From IMG/VR virus record IMGVR_UViG_3300037245_003526, positions 216,297-244,552 of that record: DNA of 28,256 nucleotides. One strand, written 5' to 3'. A program made the translations under genes and the position numbers. Under the pieces are notes generated by a model. It did no database searches. It was not told the origin of the DNA and saw only the letters and a program-made list of their open reading frames with translations. The first letter of the stretch is position 1. Each line of letters begins with the position of its first letter. The stretch comes from a virus. Below are positions 1,404-28,237 of the stretch, piece after piece.

Positions 1404-1859
1404 ATGGCAGATCAGAATCAGCAGGCTATGTCGAGGGATGATCTATTCCTATTAATGCAGAGTTATGAAAATACAGTTCAACTTAATACTACACTTCTAA
1501 ATCAACATCAAAAATTATTAGATGATAGTAAATCTCTTTTAGAAAAACATTCAGATATTATTATTAACCTAAATTCTTTAGCTGATAAACAACAAAAAAT
1601 TTCTGAAAAAAATACAACTATAATTAATAAAATAACAACACTTTCAGAACACCATGAGAGAAACATAGAAAATATTGACATAAAGATCGACGATCACAGA
1701 GTAGAAACCCTAAAGGATCATAATCAGCTCAAAACAAAAATTATAGTTATTGGTGCATTAATTGGTACTGTAGGAATTACACTATTAACTCTAATAGGCC
1801 AAATGTGGAGTAAGTATGAAATACTGGAGGCCATAGCAAAATCGTTAGGAGTTAACTAA
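1404..1859 (+). CDS. coiled-coil protein with one C-terminal transmembrane helix; possible holin/spanin-like lysis accessory
   Basis: AGGAGA RBS. The N-terminal ~110 aa are coiled-coil-like, followed by a hydrophobic stretch IIVIGALIGTVGITLLTLIGQMW. It sits directly after the endolysin. Functional call is inference. Confidence 0.55.
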   Translation: MADQNQQAMSRDDLFLLMQSYENTVQLNTTLLNQHQKLLDDSKSLLEKHSDIIINLNSLADKQQKISEKNTTIINKITTLSEHHERNIENIDIKIDDHRVETLKDHNQLKTKIIVIGALIGTVGITLLTLIGQMWSKYEILEAIAKSLGVN

Positions 1860-2701
1860 TGAATGATACTATATTTATTTTAGATGACGAAGACCAATTC
1901 TTAGAAATAATGAAATCATTTCTAATAGGAAGTGATATACCATGTAATGTTAGTACGTTTACAAAACCAGAAGACTTATTATCACAAACAAATATTAAAG
2001 ATGTAGATTTATTTATTATAGATATTAATCTAAAAACTGCACTTGATGGAAGAGAAGTATGTTCTGAAATACTGAAAATAAATAAGTATGCTGTATTTCT
2101 TTTTAACTCTGGTTACGATTATAATTATAATTCATTTATAAATCTTGATTGTACATTTGATTATATTCAAAAACCTGTTACTCACCCTATAATTATTAAT
2201 CGAACAAAAACTCTTCTTCATCTTTCTAAAGAACTTAAAAAAATAAATAAAACAAAAAAGAAAATTGAATTGAGTTTACGAGATATTTTTGACTATTCTG
2301 ATATCTATTTATTAGTTCTAAATTCAGAAATGGAAATACGATTATGTAGTTATAGATTATCAGTAGATTTAGGATTTGAATCTTCAGATGAAATTATAGG
2401 AAAAAATTGGACTAAATTTCTTCCTATTGAAATGGCTCCTCTAAAAGATCTTTTTAGTCCAGAAAGAAAAAAAATATTTAATGAATTTACTAATGATATA
2501 CAAACTAAAGATGGTAAAAGAATTCCTACTAAATGGTTTAATACAAGAATTAAAAATGGTGAAATGTGGACATTTAGTATTGGTATCCCATTAACAAAAG
2601 AAATAACTAAAGAAGATAGTATTGAAACAATGAGATCATATTGGGAAGATATTATAAAAAAAGATAGAACAACAATTAACGTCTTTAAAGACTTAATGTA
2701 A
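1859..2701 (+). CDS. CheY-like receiver domain fused to a PAS-like domain
   Basis: The ATG overlaps the upstream TAA. Receiver signature: acidic pocket ILDDED, phospho-acceptor DLFIIDINL..DGRE, S/T in FLFNSG, and conserved YIQKP (K-P). The C-terminal half has PAS-like DLGFESSDEIIGKNW...KDGKRIPTKWFNTRIKNGEMWTFSIG. Confidence 0.65.
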   Translation: MNDTIFILDDEDQFLEIMKSFLIGSDIPCNVSTFTKPEDLLSQTNIKDVDLFIIDINLKTALDGREVCSEILKINKYAVFLFNSGYDYNYNSFINLDCTFDYIQKPVTHPIIINRTKTLLHLSKELKKINKTKKKIELSLRDIFDYSDIYLLVLNSEMEIRLCSYRLSVDLGFESSDEIIGKNWTKFLPIEMAPLKDLFSPERKKIFNEFTNDIQTKDGKRIPTKWFNTRIKNGEMWTFSIGIPLTKEITKEDSIETMRSYWEDIIKKDRTTINVFKDLM

Positions 2702-2833: not shown

Positions 2834-3709
2834 ATGAAACAAATCGAAGATGTGAAAATTTTAGTAGTTGGCGATATTATGTTAGATGAATATATAGTTG
2901 GAGATGTTAATAGAATTTCACCAGAAGCTCCAGTACCAATAGTTACTGTTAAAGATACATATTATAAACTAGGTGGTTGTGGAAACGTAATATCTAATCT
3001 TTCAAATATTGGAGCTAGAGTATCTTGTGTAACAGCAATAGGTCAAGATCAACCATCGAATATTATTCTGAAAGAACTTAGAAGTTTAAATGTTGATACA
3101 GAGTTTTTAATTTCTAGATCTGATATAACAACTACAATTAAAACAAGAATTATTTCTGATGAACGACAAATACAAATACTTCGATATGACACAGAGAATA
3201 TAAAAGATGTAGATACGTCTATTCTTGAATTAACTAATGGATATGATGTAATTGTAATTTCAGATTATGCTAAAGGTATGATAACAAAACCATTAATGGA
3301 TAAACTTAAAAGTTTTGGTAATAATATCATAGTTGATCCAAAACCAAAAAATTCACATTTATATAATGATATATTTTTAATGACTCCAAACCAAAAAGAA
3401 CATGATGAAATGATGAACGGTTATTTTCCAAGAGTTGAATATGTATTAAAAACTATGGGAAAAAATGGAATGGAGTTAATAGAGCAAAAACATGGAAGAC
3501 AAGGTGGAATTAAAATTAAATCAAAACCTGTCGATGTTTATAATGTAAGCGGAGCAGGTGATACAGTAGTAGCAATTATATCTCTTTGTTTAGCATTAGG
3601 TAACGACTTATATACCTCTGCTAAAATAGCAAATGAATGTGCCGGTTATGTAGTAACCCAAACAGGAACCTCAATGGTGCCAAGAGAATTTTTTAAGGAG
3701 CTATTATGA
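2834..3709 (+). CDS. D-glycero-beta-D-manno-heptose-7-phosphate kinase-like (HldE/RfaE domain I, pfkB/ribokinase fold)
   Basis: AAAGGAGA RBS. The N-terminus ILVVGDIMLDEYIVGDVNRISPEAPVPIVTV is nearly diagnostic for RfaE/HldE domain I. Also present: DYAKG, IVDPKPKN, and the C-terminal pfkB anion-hole motif NVSGAGDTVVAI...AGYVVTQTGT. At 291 aa it is kinase-only; there is no adenylyltransferase domain. Confidence 0.75.
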   Translation: MKQIEDVKILVVGDIMLDEYIVGDVNRISPEAPVPIVTVKDTYYKLGGCGNVISNLSNIGARVSCVTAIGQDQPSNIILKELRSLNVDTEFLISRSDITTTIKTRIISDERQIQILRYDTENIKDVDTSILELTNGYDVIVISDYAKGMITKPLMDKLKSFGNNIIVDPKPKNSHLYNDIFLMTPNQKEHDEMMNGYFPRVEYVLKTMGKNGMELIEQKHGRQGGIKIKSKPVDVYNVSGAGDTVVAIISLCLALGNDLYTSAKIANECAGYVVTQTGTSMVPREFFKELL

Positions 3710-6544: not shown

Positions 6545-7112
6545 TATAATTAAAAATTATTTAAGTTTAATTCAAGAAGGTTACCTATTTTCGGATAAAA
6601 CAATAAGTATAGATCTTAATAAATTTGAAAGTGGAGAATCTAATACATTACTCGTAGTAGGTCTTATAGGTTCTGGTAAAACAACGTTAGGAAACTATCT
6701 CGCAAAAGAATATAAAGCACAATCCCTTCATACAGATAAATGTATTGCTTGGACTATAGCAGAACATCCTCCAAATAAAAAATTAATATCTGAATATTAT
6801 AAATGTATTCTAAAAATGATTAATTCTAATAAAAAAAGTGTTGTTGAAGGAACTGGTTTAATAGATCTAATGTTAGATAAAAAAGAATTGTTTGATTATC
6901 CAATGATTATAATTGGAAAGTCTGCCTTAGCAAGTTCAATTCAGTCAATGTTAAGAAATAGAAAAAATAAAGAAGAAAAGTTTTGGAGATTAATTTCCAT
7001 TCATACAAGATTGAATTTTAAAACTTTTTATAAAAAAATATTAGAAGTAAGAAAAGAAAGATTAAAAATACCTGGAGCAGTCATAGAAGAATATAAGGTA
7101 CCTAAATTATGA
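6534..7112 (+). CDS. P-loop nucleotide/polynucleotide kinase-like protein
   Basis: The track ORF starts at 6471 inside the previous gene. The ATG at 6534 overlaps the upstream stop by 11 nt and gives MKNNIIKNY... Walker A LLVVGLIGSGKTTLGNYLAKEY in a ~190-aa protein, consistent with a dNMP-kinase / PNK-kinase-like fold. Confidence 0.6.
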   Translation: MKNNIIKNYLSLIQEGYLFSDKTISIDLNKFESGESNTLLVVGLIGSGKTTLGNYLAKEYKAQSLHTDKCIAWTIAEHPPNKKLISEYYKCILKMINSNKKSVVEGTGLIDLMLDKKELFDYPMIIIGKSALASSIQSMLRNRKNKEEKFWRLISIHTRLNFKTFYKKILEVRKERLKIPGAVIEEYKVPKL

Positions 7113-7136
7113 ACTATCTAATGAACAGGAGAACTA

Positions 7137-7406
7137 ATGGCTAAACGCAAATCTTGTAAGCTTTGCACAGTTAAGAGAAAACAATGGGAAGAGGAAAACT
7201 TTTTTGGAGTTAATTGTAGGAAACATTTCGTACCTTTAATGGTAGTAAAAACACATAAGAAACGATTAAGTCCAGAGGAGAAAATTCAGGTTAAATTATT
7301 TATTGAAAAATATCATAATGGTATGTTTCCAGATAAATCGTTCAATGATTCAGAAGAACATTGGCACTTACATTTAACAAAAAAAGACAAGGGAATTAAA
7401 ATATAA
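7137..7406 (+). CDS. small Cys-containing basic protein (89 aa), possible zinc-binding
   Basis: CAGGAGA RBS. CKLCTVKRKQWEEENFFGVNCRKHF. Confidence 0.5.
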   Translation: MAKRKSCKLCTVKRKQWEEENFFGVNCRKHFVPLMVVKTHKKRLSPEEKIQVKLFIEKYHNGMFPDKSFNDSEEHWHLHLTKKDKGIKI

Positions 7407-7422
7407 TTCCCAAGCTTTTTTA
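7391..7422. terminator. bidirectional terminator hairpin
   Basis: GGGAATT-aaaatat-AATTCCC perfect 7-bp stem spanning the 7137..7406 stop, with an A-run upstream and a T-run downstream. It lies between convergent genes. Confidence 0.5.
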
Positions 7423-7425
7423 TTC

Positions 7426-7686
7426 TTACTCATATGATTCAGAACAAATACTACAATTCTTATCCAGGTCTAATTTAATTCCTCCGCAGCACATCCAAGA
7501 ATCTGGTTCATCTGGATTTTTATTATTAAGTCCTGTTAAGTCTATCTTTTTATGTCTCTTTATATAATCTAAAATAACATTTTCTATCTGTAGTGATTTT
7601 ATAATTGTACTAGATCTTATAGAATCTATTATTTCTCTACTCATTGTCATTGCATCTAATCTTGTAATCTCAGCTGTTATGGTCAT
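7426..7686 (-). CDS. hypothetical protein (86 aa)
   Basis: The track begins at TTG 7689. The ATG at 7686 has a strong RBS (AATGGAGGAtattgATG). Confidence 0.5.
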   Translation of the reverse strand: MTITAEITRLDAMTMSREIIDSIRSSTIIKSLQIENVILDYIKRHKKIDLTGLNNKNPDEPDSWMCCGGIKLDLDKNCSICSESYE

Positions 7687-9307: not shown

Positions 9308-10246
9308 ATGGGATGTAAATGTTTAGAAAAAATACAATCATTATTTTCTGGTTGGAATCCATATCCATATGTACCTGGACAAGATGATAATATTATTCTT
9401 GACCCAATACCTGAACCTACTCCTGACCCAATACCTGAACCTATTATTGAACCTGTAAAGAAAGCAGTATTGGTTGGTATAAATATTTATCCAGCTCATA
9501 TGGATGCTAATTTAAGTGGATGTGTAAATGATGTTACGAATATGAGAAATTTATTGGTTTATACGTATGGATTTGATCCTGATAACATTAGAGTTCTAAA
9601 TGATGATCGTGCTACTAAAGCTAAAATTTTTGAAAGGTTAACATGGTTAATGAATTCTAATGAAGGTGATGAATTAGTATTTCATTATAGTGGTCATGGT
9701 AGTCAAGTAAGAGATAGAAATGGCGATGAACTAGATGATGGTTTAGATGAAATATTAATACCATACGACCATGATTGGGATGCTCCATTATTAGATGATC
9801 AAATAGCTGAAATATTTAAAACACAACCTGAAGGAACTAATCTCACAATGATTGCTGATTGCTGTCACAGTGGTTCTGTTTCTAGAGATATATCTAAAAA
9901 GAAGAAAAAAATTAGATTCCTTACACCACCATTTGATATCAGAAATAGAAGTCTTGATAAAGACTTATTATTAAGAAAAATTGGAGTTAAACCAAAAGGG
10001 ACTCAAAGACATATTCTTGCATCAGGTTGTAAAGATCATCAAACCTCAGCAGATGCATATATAGGATCAACATGGCAAGGTGCTTTTACATACGCTTTAA
10101 CTTCAGCTTTAAAAACAAATTCTAATCAATCTTGGACTTCAGCAATTGAAAAATTAAGTAGTATATTAGAAGTAAAAGGTTTTGATCAAACACCTCAACT
10201 AAGCGGAGATGATCAAAATAAATTAGTTTTTGGCGGAGCTGTTTAA
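9308..10246 (+). CDS. caspase-family (peptidase C14, metacaspase-like) protease
   Basis: AAAAGGAGG RBS. Catalytic dyad contexts FHYSGHGSQ (His) and IADCCHSGS (Cys, the D-x-C-H-S-G metacaspase signature). Typical fold start VLVGINIY and C-terminal QLSGDDQNKLVFGG. N-terminal MGCKC followed by a Pro-rich linker DPIPEPTPDPIPEPIIEP encoded by an 18-nt direct repeat. Confidence 0.8.
   Translation: MGCKCLEKIQSLFSGWNPYPYVPGQDDNIILDPIPEPTPDPIPEPIIEPVKKAVLVGINIYPAHMDANLSGCVNDVTNMRNLLVYTYGFDPDNIRVLNDDRATKAKIFERLTWLMNSNEGDELVFHYSGHGSQVRDRNGDELDDGLDEILIPYDHDWDAPLLDDQIAEIFKTQPEGTNLTMIADCCHSGSVSRDISKKKKKIRFLTPPFDIRNRSLDKDLLLRKIGVKPKGTQRHILASGCKDHQTSADAYIGSTWQGAFTYALTSALKTNSNQSWTSAIEKLSSILEVKGFDQTPQLSGDDQNKLVFGGAV
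9401..9442 (+). repeat. 18-nt direct repeat (x2) encoding a Pro-rich linker in the caspase gene
   Basis: gacccaatacctgaacct at 9401-9418 and 9425-9442 (DPIPEP x2). Confidence 0.7.
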
Positions 10247-12684: not shown

Positions 12685-13227
12685 ATGAAACTTTATAAAA
12701 GTTATTTAGAGGATCCATCAGATAATATAGTAGAAGCAAAAGAAGATGAAATTGTATCAGAAGATGAGCTTTTAACAGAAGCTGAAATTCTTCCAGATCT
12801 ATTAGTTGATTGTCTTTTAGAATCAAATGAACTAACTGAGTTATTCTTAGATTACATTCAAGAAGCAGATGCAGATAAAAAAGAAACTAAAAAAGAGAAG
12901 TTTAAAAGATATCTTAAAACGGCCGGAAAAGCAGCACTTGTTGGCGCAGCAGGTTATGGTGCTTATACAGCAGCTACAAAAGCAAAGGCAGCTTATCCTG
13001 GAGCAAAAGCAGCAGCAACAAAGAAAGGTAAAGAAGTAAAAGTAGCAGCAGCAGCAACAAAGAAAAAAGTAGTAGCAACAGGTAAAGAAGCAGCAGCAAA
13101 AGTAAAAGCAGCAGCAAAAGAAATAAAAAGAAAAGGAAAATTAAAAGGTAAAGAATTAGTAGCAGCTTATCAATTACATCGCACAAAACCTCACGATGTT
13201 AAAATACCATATCGTCCAAAAGGTTAA
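12685..13227 (+). CDS. Lys/Ala-rich histone-H1-like protein, third member of the SYL.YIQ family
   Basis: TAGGAG RBS. Acidic N-terminal half with LFLDYIQEAD, then a C-terminal half AAKAKAAYPGAKAAATKKGKEVKVAAAATKKKVVATGKEAAAKVKAAAKEIKRKGK encoded by (GCA)n-rich DNA. Confidence 0.6.
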   Translation: MKLYKSYLEDPSDNIVEAKEDEIVSEDELLTEAEILPDLLVDCLLESNELTELFLDYIQEADADKKETKKEKFKRYLKTAGKAALVGAAGYGAYTAATKAKAAYPGAKAAATKKGKEVKVAAAATKKKVVATGKEAAAKVKAAAKEIKRKGKLKGKELVAAYQLHRTKPHDVKIPYRPKG

Positions 13228-13444: not shown

Positions 13445-14677
13445 ATGGGTAAAATTAAATATCCTGGTTTATGTGAGTTCGTTCAGGAAAAACTCAAACA
13501 GAAAAAAGATTCCACAGAGATATTTAATGAGGCATGTAGAACATTCAATTACAAAGATAGAATTAGTAGCTTCAGAAGATATGTAAATAATATAAAATAT
13601 AGACATAAAGATGATAGTCCAAATCAACCCTCAAATGATCAAACCATAAAAGAAAACTTACCAAAAGATGACGTATCAGAATTTCTTGATATTGTTTCGA
13701 AACAAAAAAATATAAGCATTATTGACATATGTAATGATCTTAATTGTTCACCACAAAGAATAGATAATTTAGTTTCCTATCATAGATCAAAAGGTTATGA
13801 TATCACCATTCATGAAGATATGGTTATGTTCTTTACAGACCTAGTATCATCAGTCGAACAAGTCCCTCAGATATCAGAAACCGAAATAACATTTGGTGTA
13901 GCATCCGACCTACACTTTGGATCCAAAGCAGCACAAATAACCGCTCTAAATGAGTTCTGTAATATATGTTCAAAAAGAGGAGTTAAACACATATTCAGTC
14001 CAGGTGATATTGTAGCAGGTTATAATGTATACCCTGGACAGCAATTCGATTTATATGCTTTATCAGCAGAAGAGCAAGAAGATTCAGTAATTAAAAATCT
14101 TCCAACCGGTGACTTTCAATGGTATATGTTAGGTGGTAATCATGATTATGCCTTTATTAAAAAGGGTGGTGGTCATAATCCTGTATTAGCAATAGCATCA
14201 AAAAGAGAAGATGTACATTATGTAGGTTTCGATGATGCTGATATACCTATACTTAATGGAGTAGAGCTTAAGCTGTGGCACCCTTCTGGAGGTGTGCCAT
14301 ATTCAGTATCTTATAGATTACAAAAAGGTGTAGAGCAAATATCATATAGCGAATTAAGAAGAATAATAAGCGGAGAAAAAATGGCACCAACAATTAGATT
14401 TGTACTGTCTGGTCATTTACATATTCAAGTACAAGCTATGATTGGATCAATATTCGGAATGCAATGTGGAGCATTTGAAGGTCAAACAAATTATCTAAAA
14501 CGTAAAGGTTTAGTACCTAATATTGGTGGATATATAGTTAATGCAGAATTAGGAAAAAATGGTCTTATTAAAAATTTCGATGCTAAATTTTATATGTTTG
14601 AAGATATAGAAGATGATTGGAGAAACTATAGTCATAGTATACCAAAACAAAAAATAGTTAAACCTATATTTGGATGA
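13445..14677 (+). CDS. calcineurin-like metallophosphoesterase with an N-terminal extension (410 aa)
   Basis: TGGAGG RBS. MPP motifs ASDLHFG (D-x-H), SPGDIVAG (GD), LGGNHDY (GNHD), LWHPSGG, and LSGHLHIQ (GH-x-H). Confidence 0.7.
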   Translation: MGKIKYPGLCEFVQEKLKQKKDSTEIFNEACRTFNYKDRISSFRRYVNNIKYRHKDDSPNQPSNDQTIKENLPKDDVSEFLDIVSKQKNISIIDICNDLNCSPQRIDNLVSYHRSKGYDITIHEDMVMFFTDLVSSVEQVPQISETEITFGVASDLHFGSKAAQITALNEFCNICSKRGVKHIFSPGDIVAGYNVYPGQQFDLYALSAEEQEDSVIKNLPTGDFQWYMLGGNHDYAFIKKGGGHNPVLAIASKREDVHYVGFDDADIPILNGVELKLWHPSGGVPYSVSYRLQKGVEQISYSELRRIISGEKMAPTIRFVLSGHLHIQVQAMIGSIFGMQCGAFEGQTNYLKRKGLVPNIGGYIVNAELGKNGLIKNFDAKFYMFEDIEDDWRNYSHSIPKQKIVKPIFG

Positions 14678-15441
14678 AAACTGAAAAATATTATATTTAT
14701 GCATATTTAGATCCAACAAAAAAAGGTAATTTTAAATATACGATTGAAGGAAAAATATTTATATTTGAATTTGAACCTTTTTATATTGGAAGAGGAACAA
14801 AAAATAGACTATTGGATCATTTAAAGTTACATCCTTTAGATAAAAATTATTTTAAAAAGAATAAAATTAAAAAAATAAAAAAATTAAATATAGAACCAAT
14901 AATAGTCAAGGTAAAGTTTTTACCTGATAAAATAAAAGCTAACTTATTAGAAAAAGAATTTATTAGTGTTATTGGTAGAAGAGATTTGAATCTAGGACCC
15001 TTAACAAATCTTACTGATGGGGGAGATGGAACTTATGGTTATAAACCTTCTGAAGAAGCAAAAAGAAACTGGAAAAAATCTATAAAAAAATTTTATGATG
15101 TAAAAGAAAATAGAGATAGAATGGGTTACTATAGTACAATTGAAGGAATGATTGAAAAATATGGAATAGTTGAGGGAGAAAAAAAGTATAAAGAAAGAAT
15201 AAGAAAGATGAAGAAGTCGATTAATAAAACATATAGTGATCCAAAAATAAGAAAAAAATGCTCAAATAAAGGTTCTAAAAATGGAATGTTTGGTATTACC
15301 CCACCTCATGCAAAAAAAGTTTTAGTTATGGAAGTTTTTTATAACTCCATTGCAGAAGCTTCTAAACATACTAAAGTTCCGTATACCACATTATCTCAAA
15401 GGTTAAATAGTAAAAATTTTTCAGAATATAAATATTTATAA
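14674..15441 (+). CDS. GIY-YIG homing endonuclease
   Basis: Overlaps the preceding stop (ATGA) and has a weak RBS, as is typical of free-standing HEGs. N-terminus YIYAYLDP...PFYIGRGTKNRLLDH carries GIY and YIG motifs with conserved R/H. The C-terminus has a NUMOD-like HTH (GMFG..PHAKKVL..EVFYNSIAEASKHTKVPYTTLSQRLNS). Confidence 0.8.
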   Translation: MKTEKYYIYAYLDPTKKGNFKYTIEGKIFIFEFEPFYIGRGTKNRLLDHLKLHPLDKNYFKKNKIKKIKKLNIEPIIVKVKFLPDKIKANLLEKEFISVIGRRDLNLGPLTNLTDGGDGTYGYKPSEEAKRNWKKSIKKFYDVKENRDRMGYYSTIEGMIEKYGIVEGEKKYKERIRKMKKSINKTYSDPKIRKKCSNKGSKNGMFGITPPHAKKVLVMEVFYNSIAEASKHTKVPYTTLSQRLNSKNFSEYKYL

Positions 15442-17364: not shown

Positions 17365-17778
17365 TTATTCGTTTACTCCATCTTGCACCAATAAATCAAG
17401 AATACTAACATTTTGCTCATTTACTTCTTCCATTTTCTTCAGCTCTTTAACCTTACTTTCCAGGTAAAATACCTCCTTCACGTTTATATGTTTATCCCGA
17501 ACGTGTTTACCAGTTCTACATAGATTACTTTCATCAGATTCAATTTGTCCATGTTGACCGCAAGGAGTGTCCTTAAACCAAATTTTTTCATGAATAGCAC
17601 ACACAGCAGTATCTCCATTCCAAGAAAAATGAGGACATACTTCTCCATCATGTTTATGATAAACCTGATCTCCAAACTTTTCAATATTTTCTTCCTTTGG
17701 ATTATACCTTTCAACCCATTCAGGAGCAACTATAACCACTGGAAACAGACAACATTTACCACAGCGTAAACATTTCAT
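17365..17778 (-). CDS. YkgJ/UPF0153-like CxxCGxCC metal-cluster protein
   Basis: The track starts at 17796. The second ATG at 17778 is preceded by GAAGGAGGacaag and gives MKCLRCGKCC... (C-x2-C-G-x-C-C), plus further Cys/His (CPHF, CAIH, CGQHG). Confidence 0.5.
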   Translation of the reverse strand: MKCLRCGKCCLFPVVIVAPEWVERYNPKEENIEKFGDQVYHKHDGEVCPHFSWNGDTAVCAIHEKIWFKDTPCGQHGQIESDESNLCRTGKHVRDKHINVKEVFYLESKVKELKKMEEVNEQNVSILDLLVQDGVNE

Positions 17779-17808
17779 CTTGTCCTCCTTCTCCATGCTA
17801 AGGTTAAT

Positions 17809-18228
17809 TTAGCTACCATTGATATATTCCCAATCCTCTTCAGAGATAAACCAAGGACGTTCTTCACTGTCAGCAGCCTCCCATCCTTCTTGAAACAGAG
17901 AAATTTCAGTATCTTGATCCATACCGTCAAGATTTTCTGATCTGCAAGACATTCCAAATGTACTGTTTTCATTACCAAAAGTATCATGATCATCAAAATC
18001 ACCATTAGCCATTTTCATAGCACCACTAGCCAAAACACCGACTATAATTGAAAATATAATGGGATGCTCGCCAATCCATTTTCCAGCTTTGCTATTTTCA
18101 ATTTTTTCCATTGCAGGTGAAATAACATGTTCAATAACTGGACTTAATGTATGATCAAAAACCCAATCTAACTTATCAAAAGTAAAATCTATTGCGTTAT
18201 CTAACTTGTCTGACATCTTGTCTGACAT
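17809..18228 (-). CDS. acidic protein with a central hydrophobic segment (139 aa)
   Basis: AAAAGGAGGacaagATG. Starts MSDKMSDK, encoded by a 12-nt tandem duplication. D/E-rich ends flank IIFSIIVGVLASGAM. Confidence 0.55.
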   Translation of the reverse strand: MSDKMSDKLDNAIDFTFDKLDWVFDHTLSPVIEHVISPAMEKIENSKAGKWIGEHPIIFSIIVGVLASGAMKMANGDFDDHDTFGNENSTFGMSCRSENLDGMDQDTEISLFQEGWEAADSEERPWFISEEDWEYINGS

Positions 18229-18332
18229 CTTGTCCTCCTTTTATTTAAAAATTTAATCCAAATACTCCATTAACTCAAATTATAATATATATAACAAATA
18301 CTATTATATTGGATTAAATTTTCTTAAGCTCT

Positions 18333-22484: not shown

Positions 22485-23123
22485 CTAATTTATTTTGCCT
22501 CTATCAGTTGGAATCTCAAGTTTGTTAAGCACATTGTCAAAATTTCCATGTACTGATGAACCACTCTCTAAAATTTCTCCTCTTTCCTTTTTACATTTTT
22601 CGCAGGGGCAACTTTTAGGTACTATATTCTTTAATAAATCTCCAACCATTTCTACAATTTTTGAATCTTCTATAGGTAGTGGAGGATTATCATCTATTAT
22701 TTTTTTAATAACTAAACGATTATCCTCATTCCAGGGAGATACATATTGTTCAAATGGAACATTGAATGCCCATTGTGTATCTTCTATATAGGTTTCCCCG
22801 CCCGGCGTAATGTCTTTCATACCAATCTTTATAGCATTCTTTCCATCCGATTCAGTGTATACCATAGCTAATGTATGTGTAGTTTCCGATATAAATAATA
22901 CCAAATCCGTTTTAACTTTGTAAGATATTATAGATACAAAATCACCTGCCTCTTTCCTCATAGCAGGATCATGGACTGGAAGAACGTTTACATCAACTTC
23001 CTCGTTTTCCATTTTTTTGACCAATATAAACAAAGAAGGTCTGTATTCCTTATTTATGTTATTAATAGCTTCACTAAAAATTTCATCAGCAATCTCCTTA
23101 AACTTCATTTTAAATTCTTCCAT
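22485..23123 (-). CDS. paralogue A of a duplicated 212-aa protein family with a C-terminal Cys cluster
   Basis: AGGGGAAttaaaATG. About 60% identical to 23468..24106. The C-terminal CPCEKCKKERGEILESGSSVHGNFDNVLNKLEIP is near-identical to its paralogue. Confidence 0.65.
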   Translation of the reverse strand: MEEFKMKFKEIADEIFSEAINNINKEYRPSLFILVKKMENEEVDVNVLPVHDPAMRKEAGDFVSIISYKVKTDLVLFISETTHTLAMVYTESDGKNAIKIGMKDITPGGETYIEDTQWAFNVPFEQYVSPWNEDNRLVIKKIIDDNPPLPIEDSKIVEMVGDLLKNIVPKSCPCEKCKKERGEILESGSSVHGNFDNVLNKLEIPTDRGKIN

Positions 23124-23467: not shown

Positions 23468-24106
23468 TTAATTTATTTTGTTTTTATCATTAGGAATCTC
23501 AAGTTTGTTAAGCACATTGTCAAAATTTCCATGTACTGATGCTCCACTTTCTAAAATTTCTCCTCTTTCCCTTCTACATTTTTCGCATTGACAATGGTTA
23601 GATGCTAAATTCTTTAATACATCTCCAACTATTTCCATAATTTCTGAATCTCCTATGGGATCTGGAGGAGGATTATCCTTTATCAACTGTTCGATAAATA
23701 AACGATTTTCCTCATTCCAGGGTGATACATATTGTTCAAATGGAGAATTGAATTCCCAGGTTGAATCTCCTACATATATTCCTTCTGGTTTATTGTATTT
23801 AGTACCAAACTTTAGAGCACTCTTTCCGTCCGATTCGGTGTACGACATATACAATGTATTTTCAGTTTCCCATATGAATAATATCAAATCCTTTTTATTT
23901 TTGTAAGATATTATAGATACAAAATTACCTGCCTCTTTTCTTTTAGCAGGATCATATACAGGAATAATGTCTACATCACTTTCCCCGTTTTTCAAATCTT
24001 TGACCAATATGAAAAGAGAAGGTCTTTCTTTCTCGTTTATATTATTACAAGCTTCACTAAAAATCTCATCAGCAATCTTAATAAACTTCATATCAAATTT
24101 TTCCAT
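23468..24106 (-). CDS. paralogue B of the duplicated 212-aa family
   Basis: GGGGGaaaaATG. C-terminal CQCEKCRRERGEILESGASVHGNFDNVLNKLEIP. Confidence 0.65.
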   Translation of the reverse strand: MEKFDMKFIKIADEIFSEACNNINEKERPSLFILVKDLKNGESDVDIIPVYDPAKRKEAGNFVSIISYKNKKDLILFIWETENTLYMSYTESDGKSALKFGTKYNKPEGIYVGDSTWEFNSPFEQYVSPWNEENRLFIEQLIKDNPPPDPIGDSEIMEIVGDVLKNLASNHCQCEKCRRERGEILESGASVHGNFDNVLNKLEIPNDKNKIN

Positions 24107-24157
24107 TTTTCCCCCAATTATTTAAATTTATTTAAAACAAATATTCCTAGTCTTATA

Positions 24158-24196
24158 ACTTAATATATATAGATTCCTTTTATAATATTGGAACAA
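24158..24196 (-). promoter_or_regulatory. promoter cassette downstream of a terminator (TTGTTC-N19-TATATATATTAAGTTATAAGACTAGG)
   Basis: Conserved block shared with 26862-26900, including the 5'-leader-like GTTATAAGACTAGG(A/G)ATATTT. Confidence 0.4.
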
Positions 24197-24242
24197 AAAA
24201 GAAGGTTGGAAGACTGTTCGTTTATAGAACAATCTCCCAACC
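24195..24242 (-). terminator. terminator: 16-bp stem hairpin
   Basis: GGTTGGAAGACTGTTC-gtttata-GAACAATCTCCCAACC. The two plus-strand mismatches become G-U wobbles in the minus-strand RNA. A U-run follows on the minus strand. Confidence 0.55.
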
Positions 24243-24256
24243 TAATTAGGGTGGTA

Positions 24257-25093
24257 CTAAAATAATTCAGAATGGTTGTTAAAATATTGGGCAAATGCAT
24301 TATATCCGTTTTTATTTAACCATGTATTACTAGGAATTTTACCTCCGTTTTCCTTTATTAATTTCTCAGCAGTTTTTATATGATCTTTATGAGTTGCTCT
24401 CAATGAGACCTTTTTCAAATGACTAAATGATTCAGGATTTCTATACATACAACCGTAAAGATTACCATACCCGTTATTTTTCAACCATGTTGGATTAGGA
24501 ACTTTACCTCCGTTTTTCTTTGCTAATTTCTCAGCAGTTTTTACATAATCTTCCTTCTTTACAAAAGAATTATCTTGTTTTAAATGACTGAACACCTTAC
24601 GATGTTTCGTAAAATAACTGGAAAGAGGCATATACCCATTGTTTTCCAACCATGTAAAAGAGGGAACTTTACCTCCATTTTTCTTTGCTAATTTCTCAGC
24701 AGTTTTGATATGTTTTTCACGAGATATAAAAAAATTTTCTTGTTTTAAATTAGTGAATAACTCAGGGTGATTTATAAGATATTGAGCAAATGCACCATAT
24801 CCTTTTTTTATTAACCATGAATGACTAGGAATCTTATCATTATTATTTTTAGCTAATTTAGCAGCAGTTTCAATATGTACTTCAGAAGCTAGAACTAATT
24901 TTTCTTGCTCTAAATGATCAAATAATTCAGGAAGTCTCATAATACAACCTCCAAGAGCAATATAACCGTTTTCCGATAACCATTTAAAAGTGGGAATTTT
25001 ACCTCCATTTTCCTTTGCTAATTTCTCAGCAGTTTTCACATGATCTTCATTTATAATTCTTAAACTTCTAGAAAATATTTCCCTAAACTCTTT
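24257..25093 (-). repeat. five tandem ~165-nt coding repeats in the helicase 3' end
   Basis: Recurrent block (t)tacctccgtttt(c/t)ctttgctaatttctcagcagttt at about 24340, 24505, 24670, 24830 and 25000. Confidence 0.7.
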
Positions 25094-26800
25094 AAATGTC
25101 TCAATTCCTAATTGGTCAGTTCCAAAAACTAGTAATTTATCAAATATTTTATTCTCCCATATCTTATCAAATCCTGCCTCCAACATAAAGGATATATCCA
25201 AACCCTTCTTATATCCTGGGTCTTTAGAATCAGTTATTATAGAATCCCTCCTTAACATTTTAGCTATGTGTATAGTAATATCATCAATCATCTCCTTCCT
25301 TATATTAAAATTATTTAAAACAGTTTTAATAGTTTCTTTAGAATCGTCTAATGTAGGTTCACCTTTTGATTCTTTCAAAAATATTAATTCCATAATAATA
25401 TTATCCATAATATCCTGTCTTATTCCTTCATTTGAAACTTCTTCAATAAAACAATTATAAGTCCTGGTACCATTTTTTTTATTACCTCTACCTCTCTTTA
25501 TATAAGGTATTGGTTCAATAGTTTCCCGTAAAAGTAACGATGCTGTAAAAGCATTATAGCTATTACTAAGATGTGATCTTCGATCCACTTCGATATTATA
25601 TTTTGAAATATATGGTAAAAAAACATTATAACCTATATGAGTCTTTTTAGGAAGATCCCTCCATAGTCTCCCGTGTCTTTGTCCTAAAACCCTTAATGAG
25701 TTAGATGGTGCAAGATCCAATATCTGCTCAGCATATAACCAGTCAGAACCTTCATCAAAAATTTTCAAAGCAAGTATGATGTCAATATTCCCTGCTTTTT
25801 TATTATCAAAAATTATTTTCTTTTTCTCGTCCCTGTTGTTAGTAGTAATTAAGTCCATTATATTGCAGTCAGACCAAACCTCCCTTATTATGGAAATAAG
25901 TCGGTCCCTAAATATATATTTGTCAATTCCATTCAAAAGATTACCTACGTAAGGACAATATATAACATACTTCTTTTTACCAAATTTAGTTATTACCTCC
26001 TTTACCGAATCAAAAATGTCAGTATATGTAACAAAATTAAATTCAAATGACTTAATGTGTTTAATGTTCTCTTCCCAGTGTCGGTCTAATGGTAAAAAAT
26101 GATAAGTAAATTTCGAAATAACTTCTTCTGGTAATATTAATCCCCGGTCTCCTCTAAAAAATGTAGCAGTTGGAAGCCATATAGATGTAGTAGGATCGTC
26201 AAATGTAGTTAACTCCCTTATAAGTTTACCTATCATATTACATGAATCACTTTCTTCAGTTTCAGGAAATAATATGTGGTGAGCTTCATCAATTACCAAT
26301 GTAGTGTTACTGAATAATTCCCCAATAAATTTACCATAATGTTGAATTATCCTCGACATGTTAGCATGTGTAGTTATTAAAATTCTATCAGATATTTCTT
26401 TATCATTAGAAGATTTCTTTCCTTTTAGAAAATCCTCTAAAAATTTTACCTTTCTTCCAAGGTTTATTCCATTGCATAAATCATGGCCAATTGCCCAATC
26501 TAATTCAGCACCATCAGTATATCGTAAATTGATATCTTTAAAGGATTTTATTATTAGCGTTTGTGGTATGCATATTATTAACTTGTGTTCATTGTCCCTA
26601 TGTAACCTCTTTGCCATTACAAACTTAATAGTCGTACTCTTACCTGAACCCGGAGGTTCGTTCATTATAAAGTATCTCTCGTCAGAATAATTAGTAAGTA
26701 TGTAGTCCTGATGTTTTCTAATTGTATGTGTACCTTCGTTACCAATTGATAGTTTACCTTTTCGTTTTTGTTTTGTAGCTATGAATGAGTTCTTTATCAT
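24257..26800 (-). CDS. superfamily-2 DEAH-box helicase/ATPase with five C-terminal ~55-aa tandem repeats (helicase-associated-like)
   Basis: GGAGGaaatATG. Walker A NEPPGSGKSTT, motif II VIDEAHHI, TAT motif LPTATFF, motif VI GQRHGRLWR. C-terminal repeats (H/Y)(I/V)KTAEKLAKKNGGK(V/I)P..TWL..NGY... x5, visible as ~165-nt DNA tandem repeats. Confidence 0.8.
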   Translation of the reverse strand: MIKNSFIATKQKRKGKLSIGNEGTHTIRKHQDYILTNYSDERYFIMNEPPGSGKSTTIKFVMAKRLHRDNEHKLIICIPQTLIIKSFKDINLRYTDGAELDWAIGHDLCNGINLGRKVKFLEDFLKGKKSSNDKEISDRILITTHANMSRIIQHYGKFIGELFSNTTLVIDEAHHILFPETEESDSCNMIGKLIRELTTFDDPTTSIWLPTATFFRGDRGLILPEEVISKFTYHFLPLDRHWEENIKHIKSFEFNFVTYTDIFDSVKEVITKFGKKKYVIYCPYVGNLLNGIDKYIFRDRLISIIREVWSDCNIMDLITTNNRDEKKKIIFDNKKAGNIDIILALKIFDEGSDWLYAEQILDLAPSNSLRVLGQRHGRLWRDLPKKTHIGYNVFLPYISKYNIEVDRRSHLSNSYNAFTASLLLRETIEPIPYIKRGRGNKKNGTRTYNCFIEEVSNEGIRQDIMDNIIMELIFLKESKGEPTLDDSKETIKTVLNNFNIRKEMIDDITIHIAKMLRRDSIITDSKDPGYKKGLDISFMLEAGFDKIWENKIFDKLLVFGTDQLGIETFKEFREIFSRSLRIINEDHVKTAEKLAKENGGKIPTFKWLSENGYIALGGCIMRLPELFDHLEQEKLVLASEVHIETAAKLAKNNNDKIPSHSWLIKKGYGAFAQYLINHPELFTNLKQENFFISREKHIKTAEKLAKKNGGKVPSFTWLENNGYMPLSSYFTKHRKVFSHLKQDNSFVKKEDYVKTAEKLAKKNGGKVPNPTWLKNNGYGNLYGCMYRNPESFSHLKKVSLRATHKDHIKTAEKLIKENGGKIPSNTWLNKNGYNAFAQYFNNHSELF

Positions 26801-26861
26801 ATTTCCTCCATATATATTTAAATTAAATTAAATGTTAAAAATAAATATCCCTAGTCTTATA

Positions 26862-26900
26862 ACTTAATATATATAGTATCAATCATTAAAATTGGAACAA
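26862..26900 (-). promoter_or_regulatory. promoter cassette for the helicase transcription unit
   Basis: Minus strand: T7-GTTCCAATTTTAATgattgatacTATATATATTAAGTTATAAGACTAGGGATATTT. Confidence 0.4.
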
Positions 26901-26928
26901 AAAAAGAGGTAGACTAATCCCCTTTTTT
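26899..26928 (-). terminator. terminator hairpin after 26939..28237
   Basis: A7-GAGG-tagactaat-CCCC-T6. The stem is weak because it is AT-rich. Confidence 0.4.
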
Positions 26929-26938
26929 CGTAAATACT

Positions 26939-28237
26939 TTATGGGTGAATAATTTTAAACCGAGTAGTTCCTATTGTTATATTTTCCTCTCCCCTTAAAT
27001 GTTTAGGAATGTTTGTGAAGTCAGTTCCTTCCCCTACCCTCCTTTGATGACTTCTTACCCAGTGTTTAATATATCTTAAACGACCTGTCTGTGTCACGGG
27101 AGCATCTCTAGCATAAAATAAAGATTTAATTTGCTCATAGTCAACTGAAAATGTGCATTTACTCTTCCCTTCCAAAGCTATTATTTTCCACATTTCCTTC
27201 TCACGAATCATTTCGTCGCAGTCTAGCATAATTGACGCCATTCTGCATGATTTTTGTAGTTCTATATGTGTTAGCTTTGTCATAGTTTTGTTTTGAAAGT
27301 CTTCAGGAAGTTCATACAAACCATTATTTTTTCCATTTAAAGCTTTTGTAAAACTCATTGGAAAAATAGGACCTATTAAATTGTTTCTAAAATCAATACG
27401 AAGTGGAATCTTATAACCAAATATTCCACCCTCGTCTCTATAAGCAAGCTTGTATAGAGCATAGGGTCTAGACCAGTTATTCCATAACTCAGGTATTGTA
27501 CCTAAATCCTTATGTGGAGAAGGTTCAGGTTTTAAATAATACATATAAGTGTTTGCCGTCCTGTATGTTATGTAATCAGCTGCAGATCCTTGTAACCCTA
27601 GTTTTTCAGTCATATTTTTAGCAGCTGAATCCTCTACTCCCTTATCCTGATTGCCAGATACAGATACAGATATAACCCCAGTTGGCCTATCATAATCAGC
27701 AAGAAATATAGCAGCATGGTCCTCTGTAAATCTATCACTTACATCCTCGTCCTGAAATGGAGATCTCCTGTTGTCACTCTTAGAGTAGTTCATAAATGGA
27801 GTAAAGTAGGGTCCAATCTTTTTCAAAAAGTTGAATTGATTAGGTTTTATTCTGAATAATTTATCGTACCCTTCTTTACATGTCATCTTTTCTAAAAAAG
27901 CTATTAATGTAGTCTCAACCACATCAGAAAAATGATCATCATCCCACCAATCAATCATTCTCCTTTCCTTTTTTTCCTTCATAGATATAGTAATCTTTTC
28001 CCATTCACCATTTGTAGATTTCCACTTACCGCGTAAAGACCAAGGATTCTTCCAATATAATTGAAGTGTGTGGTCTGTACCTGTTAACCTTACTCCTTCA
28101 TCTCCTTTGTCATTACCTTCTAGTATTAAACTAGAAAATATAATAGTAATTATATTTGTTGAATTATCCTTATTATATTCCCCTTGATATGTGCTTATTT
28201 TTTCGTTGTAATTATGTATGGTTATTCTAGCTTTCAT
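26939..28237 (-). CDS. hypothetical protein (432 aa)
   Basis: AAGGGAGtacttaATG. Long uninterrupted ORF, Trp/Tyr-rich, no recognised motif. Confidence 0.6.
   Translation of the reverse strand: MKARITIHNYNEKISTYQGEYNKDNSTNIITIIFSSLILEGNDKGDEGVRLTGTDHTLQLYWKNPWSLRGKWKSTNGEWEKITISMKEKKERRMIDWWDDDHFSDVVETTLIAFLEKMTCKEGYDKLFRIKPNQFNFLKKIGPYFTPFMNYSKSDNRRSPFQDEDVSDRFTEDHAAIFLADYDRPTGVISVSVSGNQDKGVEDSAAKNMTEKLGLQGSAADYITYRTANTYMYYLKPEPSPHKDLGTIPELWNNWSRPYALYKLAYRDEGGIFGYKIPLRIDFRNNLIGPIFPMSFTKALNGKNNGLYELPEDFQNKTMTKLTHIELQKSCRMASIMLDCDEMIREKEMWKIIALEGKSKCTFSVDYEQIKSLFYARDAPVTQTGRLRYIKHWVRSHQRRVGEGTDFTNIPKHLRGEENITIGTTRFKIIHP

Follow-up and report, generated by a model that had tools for sequence, protein, structure and literature searches.

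Here, we describe a helicase gene on the minus strand of a 28,256-nucleotide stretch of viral DNA (positions 216,297 to 244,552 of the IMG/VR virus record IMGVR_UViG_3300037245_003526). This whole stretch is referred to below as the window, and all coordinates are counted from its first nucleotide. The gene is a complete open reading frame (ORF) at 24257..26800 (-) in the ORF list, encoding 847 residues followed by a stop codon. It starts with ATG, with the Shine-Dalgarno sequence GGAGG located 5 nt before this codon, and the same protein sequence (P0001) has been recorded from a 244.5-kb JGI contig. A preliminary description of the window had taken the product to be a superfamily 2 (SF2) DEAH helicase with five C-terminal tandem repeats, and both parts are borne out by the full motif set, by matches to the Pfam families ResIII and DEAD and by an exact repeat period of 55 residues. 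Tandem HA domains are a frequent feature of helicases from bacteria, giant viruses and phages. The window protein is a real and fairly ordinary variant of this widespread, uncharacterised 'helicase plus HA array' architecture, with a different, uncatalogued repeat family.

SF2 motor core and helical domain

Along the N-terminal part of the protein, motifs I (PPGSGKST, residues 49-56), Ia (CIPQT, 77-81), II (DEAHH, 171-175), III (TATFFRGD, 211-218), V (FDEGSDW, 348-354) and VI (QRHGRLWR, 374-381) follow one another in canonical order, with key residues that do not vary among the 43 homologues of alignment A1. Together with two tandem RecA-like domains, these motifs place the protein in SF2. Pfam agrees, with ResIII (5e-8) and DEAD (5e-7) above their gathering cutoffs and a weak match to Helicase_C. 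The motor core comprises residues ~24-396 (25613..26731, -), as delimited by Pfam, the motif positions, AlphaFold2 (AF2), Foldseek and the family profile run against the PDB. It is followed by a family-specific helical domain, residues 397-582 (25055..25612, -), which was delimited by the AF2 secondary structure and by conservation in alignment A1; the C-terminal end of this domain is a conserved GFDKIW...FGT...TF.EFR segment directly before the repeat array. In the full-length AF2 model, built from the 43-sequence alignment, the predicted local distance difference test score (pLDDT) is 82.7 and is mostly >90 across residues 24-396; the model consists of the two RecA-like domains, the helical domain and five bead-like units. 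The assignment of the motifs to the N-terminal ~560 residues in the preliminary description was therefore correct but generous, as the RecA core ends at about residue 396 and the helical domain continues to residue 582.

Comparison of the full model with the PDB using Foldseek gave a generic SF2 likeness (RapA, DbpA, eIF4AIII, Pol theta, BLM and Lhr; E~1e-8), with a probability of 1.00 for many SF2 helicase structures. The family profile, searched against PDB sequences, matched XPB/Rad25 (2e-11), XPBII, RadD and T4 UvsW (1e-5), all of which act on DNA; these PDB matches came from the family profile only, and phmmer with the single helicase protein found no match in the PDB. No solved structure matches the sequence profile better than XPB/Rad25, RadD and UvsW, which have in common with the window helicase the two-RecA motor and a DExH-type motif II. 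However, the matches are partial (RecA2 for XPB, motif I for UvsW), and these enzymes lack both the helical middle domain and the C-terminal array of repeats. Orthology to T4 UvsW was considered and rejected, since the profile match to UvsW (2oca, E~1e-5) is restricted to the motif I region and tblastn of the helicase against 50,697 deposited phage genomes gave no T4-group genome. Among the anti-phage defence helicases of PADLOC and the named families of NCBIfam, none matched the helicase at cutoff: PbeA (1e-12, on RecA2), the Cas3 core and dnd_restrict_1 (28 bits against a cutoff of 600) all gave weak, partial, sub-threshold matches. A scan of IMG/VR for close relatives of the helicase returned none, and an exact look-up of the protein gave a 3.4-kb Logan contig only.

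The 55-residue repeat array

The array occupies residues 583-847 (24260..25054, -), as defined by an AF2 two-unit model and a repeat hidden Markov model (HMM). Its five units start at residues 583 (unit 1, 24890-25054, -), 638 (unit 2, 24725-24889, -), 693 (unit 3, 24560-24724, -), 748 (unit 4, 24395-24559, -) and 803 (unit 5, 24260-24394, -), the last of which is cut to 45 residues by the stop codon. The period is exactly 55 residues, and the repeat HMM scores individual units down to E~1e-24. As stated in the preliminary description, the periodicity is still visible in the DNA, where Tandem Repeats Finder reports a period of 165 nt (24498-25049, 3.3 copies, 69% matches). The repeat family has the consensus (T/S).EEWV..AE.LAKENGG.LP...WL.KNGY.GL...MRKHPE.F.HIKQE, within which A9, L12, G18, L20, P21, W25, L26, L34, P42, F45 and H47 are the most conserved positions. 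The array region is basic (pI 9.6, net charge +16), and Lys or Arg is conserved at unit positions 27-28, 39-40 and 49-54.

The AF2 two-unit model has a pLDDT of 91.7, and each unit is built as helix(14)-strand-helix(6)-helix(9)-helix(4)-strand. The predicted fold is a small basic helical module, weakly winged-helix-like, and ESCRT-II and RPA32 are among the structural matches listed for it. The predicted template modelling score of 0.59 for the same model suggests that the units are flexibly linked.

A search of 1.84 billion cluster representatives (clustering at 50% identity) with the repeat profile returned 832 clusters at E<=1e-3, 294 of them at E<=1e-30, which gives a family size of ~830 clusters. 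With an HMM made from the five window units, the repeat was found in all relatives of more than ~35% identity, in 2-7 copies. The local copy of Pfam holds no family for the repeat, and APP_Cu_bd, AbiEi_3_N and DUF7307, which are unrelated or uncharacterised, recur as sub-threshold matches; a newer Pfam gave just 'faint' matches to PF26683 Tyr_recomb_halo_N. Against PDB sequences the repeat profile found chance-level matches only, and a literature search on the repeat, PF26683 and DUF7307 returned nothing.

Relation to HA domains and other repeat families

The preliminary description had found the repeats reminiscent of helicase-associated modules. As to position, this likeness holds. The protein carries five tandem copies C-terminal to the helicase from residue 583, and in helicase homologues of 23-30% identity the same position, from residue ~587-620 onwards, is taken by 2-7 tandem Pfam HA domains. 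In IMG/VR loci, this one slot, beside the same helicase and the same partner gene (see below), is filled by HA-type or by 55-residue arrays, either fused or split, and the evidence for positional equivalence of the two array types is strong. Some other helicase relatives have INT_rpt units in the array position.

As to family, the likeness fails. Membership of Pfam HA (PF03457) was rejected because the gathering score of 28.4 bits is not reached; no HA match was seen on the full helicase protein at E<=1, or on the isolated array and three repeat-rich relatives even at E<=10, and a custom HA HMM had zero matches on the 55-residue repeat proteins. Of the Pfam families proposed in the preliminary description, ResIII and DEAD were thus matched and HA was not. 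A profile-profile comparison of the repeat with HA gave a weak relation (P=0.0013, probability 18%). By these profile comparisons the repeat is a separate, previously uncatalogued family, distinct from Pfam HA.

Tandem-HA helicases are nevertheless the closest known counterparts. Their SF2 cores share 23-30% identity with the homologous core of the window protein (E 1e-30 to 1e-60), the conserved partner gene is again found nearby, 2-7 small helical modules begin at the same residue, and the array is sometimes found as separate ORFs (loci L030, L035 and L037). A solved example of the HA domain is PDB 2KTA, residues 627-691 of BVU_0683 from Bacteroides vulgatus. The window module differs in that it belongs to another sequence family, with 55 residues and the consensus T.EEWV..AE.LAKENGG.LP...WL..NGY.GL....RKHPE.F.HIKQ. 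The title of Mills et al. 2013 says of the HA domain structure (2KTA) that it 'indicates domain binding to DNA'. Another tandem module, HNH_repeat (PF18780), is also similar: its unit is of nearly equal length (54 residues), it occurs in tandem on DNA-acting enzymes with the same 'helix, G-x-P turn, helices' pattern, and it adjoins 55-residue repeats within one protein. However, it is a distinct sequence family (profile-profile P 0.04), and the window protein has no HNH_repeat match.

Fusion partners, split arrays and copy number

The dominant fusion partner of the repeat is an SF2 helicase. Elsewhere, three units are found on a large serine recombinase of 1009 residues (P0246), one protein combines the repeat with a T5orf172/MUG113 domain (P0131), and in the protein shared with HNH_repeat (P0176) four Pfam HNH_repeat units are followed by six 55-residue units. 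Since the partner domains of the repeat outside helicases are all DNA enzymes or DNA-binding modules, the repeat itself probably binds DNA, and this association is the main basis for that view.

The fusion partners also bear on the kind of nucleic acid involved. A protein that paired an SF2 motor with repeats anchoring it to structured RNA would be an RNA helicase or chaperone of the DbpA/YxiN kind, in which a C-terminal domain anchors the helicase to rRNA. In Foldseek, the full model has the DEAD-box RNA helicases DbpA, eIF4AIII and Mss116 among its top matches, and winged helices of the Zalpha type bind not only DNA but also left-handed RNA. The likeness to DbpA, which is among the top core matches in Foldseek, is one of functional analogy only, namely an SF2 motor with a nucleic-acid-binding domain that tethers it to the substrate; DbpA is a DEAD-box enzyme with a single RRM-like domain, whereas the window protein has a DEAH/ResIII core and five weakly winged-helix-like repeats and is probably DNA-acting. 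Motif II is DEAH in a ResIII-type core and not DEAD, the nearest solved relatives by sequence profile are XPB/Rad25, RadD and UvsW, and the other fusion partners of the repeat are DNA enzymes of recombinase and nuclease type. We therefore regard an RNA-directed enzyme as very unlikely.

In several relatives, the array is not fused to the helicase. The only record with the repeat among 50,697 deposited phage genomes is Tunturi_5 (PP885688.1), a Tunturiibacter phage and 309-kb jumbo myovirus, in which gp100-gp99-gp98 resemble the window gene in having a homologous helicase core (22-26% identity) and 5 (gp99) and 3 (gp98) copies of the 55-residue repeat. It differs in that the core (gp100, 641 residues) is unfused and the array lies downstream in two separate ORFs, and in its Acidobacteriota host and 58% GC genome, against ~30% GC in the window. 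All three proteins carry the plain annotation 'DNA helicase', and the paper describing Tunturi_5 does not mention the helicase and array ORFs. Both gp99 (L004 5698-6780) and gp98 (6777-7553) begin with a common segment of ~45 residues, …LR..Y..G.LTK.QIAVVE.RYP.(W/F)DW.P, which by eye resembles the C-terminal half of HA; neither the HA HMM nor Pfam matches it. On large contigs, integrase-flanked elements carry an 8-unit ORF that overlaps the end of a 584- or 621-residue core; at locus L019 a core with one unit is accompanied by three further ORFs with 7, 7 and 6 units. That the array is sometimes encoded as separate ORFs implies that it can work in trans.

Split arrays also bring in a role that does not involve nucleic acid, in which the array would be a protein-protein interaction scaffold that recruits or sequesters a protein of host or phage, for instance RNA polymerase, a replisome component or the conserved partner protein (see below). 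Where array ORFs stand separately beside the helicase, as in gp99/gp98 of Tunturi_5 and at L008, L011 and L019, they must associate through protein contacts, and winged-helix folds also mediate such contacts, with ESCRT-II and RPA32 in the match list given above. Against this, the array is strongly basic, all other domains fused to the repeat are DNA-acting and the positionally equivalent HA domain is, by the title of its report, DNA-binding. We consider a pure scaffold unlikely and retain DNA binding by the array as the preferred reading.

The repeat number varies among relatives, as the preliminary description had anticipated: fused arrays have 2-12 copies and split arrays have up to 21. Units of one protein resemble each other more than they resemble those of orthologues, the units of P0001 do not correspond position by position to those of P0002, P0003 or P0005, and some arrays have units up to 91% identical. 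Variable copy number and within-protein similarity together indicate that arrays expand or homogenise lineage by lineage. The proposal that copy number varies by recombination thus stands on the evolutionary scale and does not extend to the window gene itself. Its units show pairwise identities of 36-60% in protein and 56-74% in nucleotides, and exact matches in register extend over 29 nt at most. These values point to an old, diverged array and do not indicate active recombination; judged from the sequence, ongoing slippage in this gene is unlikely.

A conserved partner gene

In 23 of the 28 informative distinct loci, the helicase or array has as its neighbour, adjacent or no more than 4 kb away, a gene for a protein of ~200-270 residues with the motifs QYWT.CG...QFHGVD...GDF...FNP..VN.D. 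This gene follows the array or immediately precedes the helicase, and it occurs with HA-type, 55-residue and undetected arrays alike, fused or split, and in any gene order. The members collected in alignment A6 lie at L003 12555-13295, L005 12599-13291, L007 12712-13428, L008 7301-7891, L011 7305-7877 and at 18 further loci. On one 572-kb IMG/VR contig (IMGVR_UViG_3300015615_000629), two separate helicase-partner pairs, L039 and L040, lie ~44 kb apart. The search for a partner function, by Pfam on the 23 members and by a profile against the PDB, gave only weak methyltransferase hints: the matches, several in number and each weak, agree on class-I SAM methyltransferases and cover one and the same segment (Methyltransf_25 0.044; PDB 3cgg 1.1, 9e72 0.29 and 9un4 0.29).

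The partner is absent from the 28-kb window even at E<=10, with 24 kb visible downstream of the helicase gene and 1.4 kb upstream, and it is also absent from L002, from the Tunturi_5 locus (within 4 kb) and from the L020 group. As only 1.4 kb upstream is visible, the partner could be encoded elsewhere in the genome. On that assumption, the helicase, the array and a methyltransferase-like partner could form a multi-gene DNA-modifying or counter-defence system. The regular company of the partner, irrespective of array type, fusion state and gene order, and the agreement of its weak matches on one enzyme class over one segment speak for such a system; its absence from the four places just named, the lack of significance of every single methyltransferase match and the lack of a nuclease or other effector conserved alongside speak against it. 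For the window gene we find this doubtful, and continue to prefer an SF2 DNA translocase with a DNA-binding tail.

Transcription unit

The helicase gene is bounded by similar sequence elements on both sides. Upstream, a cassette at 26836..26909 (-) consists of a weak hairpin and T-run, which would terminate the preceding gene, followed by GTTCCAAT, ~15 nt and CTATATATATTAAGTTATAAGACTAGG, and is a candidate promoter-like element of the helicase gene. Downstream, an intrinsic-terminator-like hairpin at 24203..24243 (-), 14 nt past the stop codon, has a 17-bp stem and a 7-nt loop followed by TCTTTTTTGT; the terminator reported in the preliminary description is thus present, with a stem of 17 bp rather than the 16 bp given there. 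A second cassette copy follows at 24132..24205 (-) and would drive the next gene, 23468-24106. The two flanks (26909-26836 and 24205-24132) have in common a block of ~75 nt comprising the T-run, GTTCCAAT, ~15 nt and CTATATATATTAAGTTATAAGACTAGG, and the 24-nt core of this block has two exact matches in the window against 0 in 100 shuffles, which upholds the earlier assignment of an own promoter-like cassette to this gene. An nhmmer profile of the block found two more diverged copies at 22452-22393 and 19425-19367 (-), again after a hairpin and T-run, so that the pattern over the four copies is hairpin, T-run, GTTCCAAT, ~15 nt, (C)TATATATAT; the cassette may alternatively be written GTTCCAAT-N15-CTATATATAT. 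A generic sigma-70 scan performed no better than on shuffled sequence. The GTTCCAAT box lies at the position of a -35 element or activator box, and the cassette may represent a putative phage-specific promoter class. As the recurring terminator-plus-promoter-like cassette cuts the minus-strand block into units, the helicase gene forms a unit of its own and is, by this predicted arrangement, monocistronic.

Genome context

No near-identical DNA to the window was found among the 50,697 deposited phage genomes. Helicase relatives at 37-47% identity are located on 150-300-kb contigs beside genes for Gp23, Portal_T4, prohead protease, sheath and baseplate proteins. From this association with T4-type structural genes and from the gene content of the window, we concluded that its source is a large T4-like myovirus.

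The window holds no conserved functional neighbour of the helicase. The immediate neighbours, 26939-28237 (432 residues) and 23468-24106, have no match to a Pfam, PHROG or PADLOC family, and a look-up of the 432-residue protein found no record of it. The gene directly downstream, 23468-24106 (-), and 22485-23123 (-) are paralogues of 212 residues with 68% identity; neither matched Pfam or PHROGs, and PADLOC, run on 23468-24106 only, also gave none. A response-regulator receiver and PAS protein is encoded at 1859-2701 (+), and a similar gene occurs near the helicase in a relative (L003 8016-8939). At 13445-14677 (+) lies an Mre11/gp47-like metallophosphoesterase gene, overlapped by a GIY-YIG homing-endonuclease-like ORF at 14674-15441 (+), and the former may be read as interrupted by the latter. 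A Metallophos gene of 411 residues near the helicase at L005 and L006 suggests partial synteny.

Further genes include a caspase-family peptidase at 9308-10246 (+; Pfam Peptidase_C14, 2e-32) and two auxiliary genes that are unusual in phages, a PfkB-family sugar kinase at 2834-3709 (+; 3e-32) and a CxxCxxCC zinc/iron-chelating domain protein at 17365-17796 (-; 1e-5). Short repeats were also observed: a perfect 12-nt tandem repeat at 18205-18234 (CTTGTCTGACAT x2.5) at the 5' end of ORF 17809-18228 (-), and a repeat with a 21/33-nt period at 13005-13140 within ORF 12685-13227 (+).

Proposed function and implications

Taking these results together, we think it rather probable that the gene, from a large T4-like myovirus, encodes an SF2 (ResIII/DEAH-type) DNA translocase or helicase with a DNA-binding, anchoring repeat tail. 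An ATP-driven SF2 motor core (residues ~24-396) with its helical domain (to residue 582) would be followed by five basic helical modules that act as a multivalent, low-specificity nucleic-acid-binding tail, most likely for DNA. This tail would hold the motor on its substrate, which is the same job that is proposed for the tandem HA domains of related helicases. The gene would be transcribed alone from the phage-specific promoter-like cassette, and transcription would end at the intrinsic terminator. That the substrate is DNA and not RNA, that the repeats bind DNA and that they anchor the motor are inferences from the relatives and fusion partners described above. As for the pathway in infection, replication or recombination fork remodelling is our guess; the analyses lent no support to the roles in transcription or replication takeover or in anti-restriction that the preliminary description had suggested.

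Several observations weigh against this assignment. Both DNA binding and enzymatic activity are predictions from sequence and models, and Foldseek places DEAD-box RNA helicases as high as DNA enzymes, so that RNA is a conceivable substrate. The equivalence with HA rests on position and not on demonstrated homology, as the Pfam HA model failed and the profile-profile comparison reached only P~1e-3. Finally, most relatives keep an adjoining partner and the window gene is without one, so the protein may need a distant partner or may work differently.

A bolder reading is tentatively conceivable, and we hold it to be less probable. In this case the repeat would be a new DNA-binding family interchangeable with HA. 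Repeat, helicase and methyltransferase-like partner would be the three parts of an uncharacterised system, widespread among huge phages and integrative elements. During infection, such a system might mark DNA or remodel it, or might act against host defence, with a fast-evolving copy number tuning affinity or reach, and the partner of the window gene would be encoded elsewhere.

For the window itself, with the gene read as a DNA translocase or helicase with an anchoring tail, the gain is modest, namely a better annotation (SF2 DNA helicase, DNA-binding repeat tail) and the delimitation of a monocistronic unit. The conserved helicase-array-partner module is the most valuable lead, and the window represents it only partly. 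The partner gene offers an experimental handle; the cultivable Tunturi_5 carries the core and the arrays, with no partner within 4 kb. For the wider family, a second, uncatalogued repeat family, with ~830 clusters and one cultured phage only, can replace HA in the same helicase slot, and its presence in recombinases and nuclease-type proteins as well suggests a DNA-tethering device that is general, modular and able to expand rapidly.

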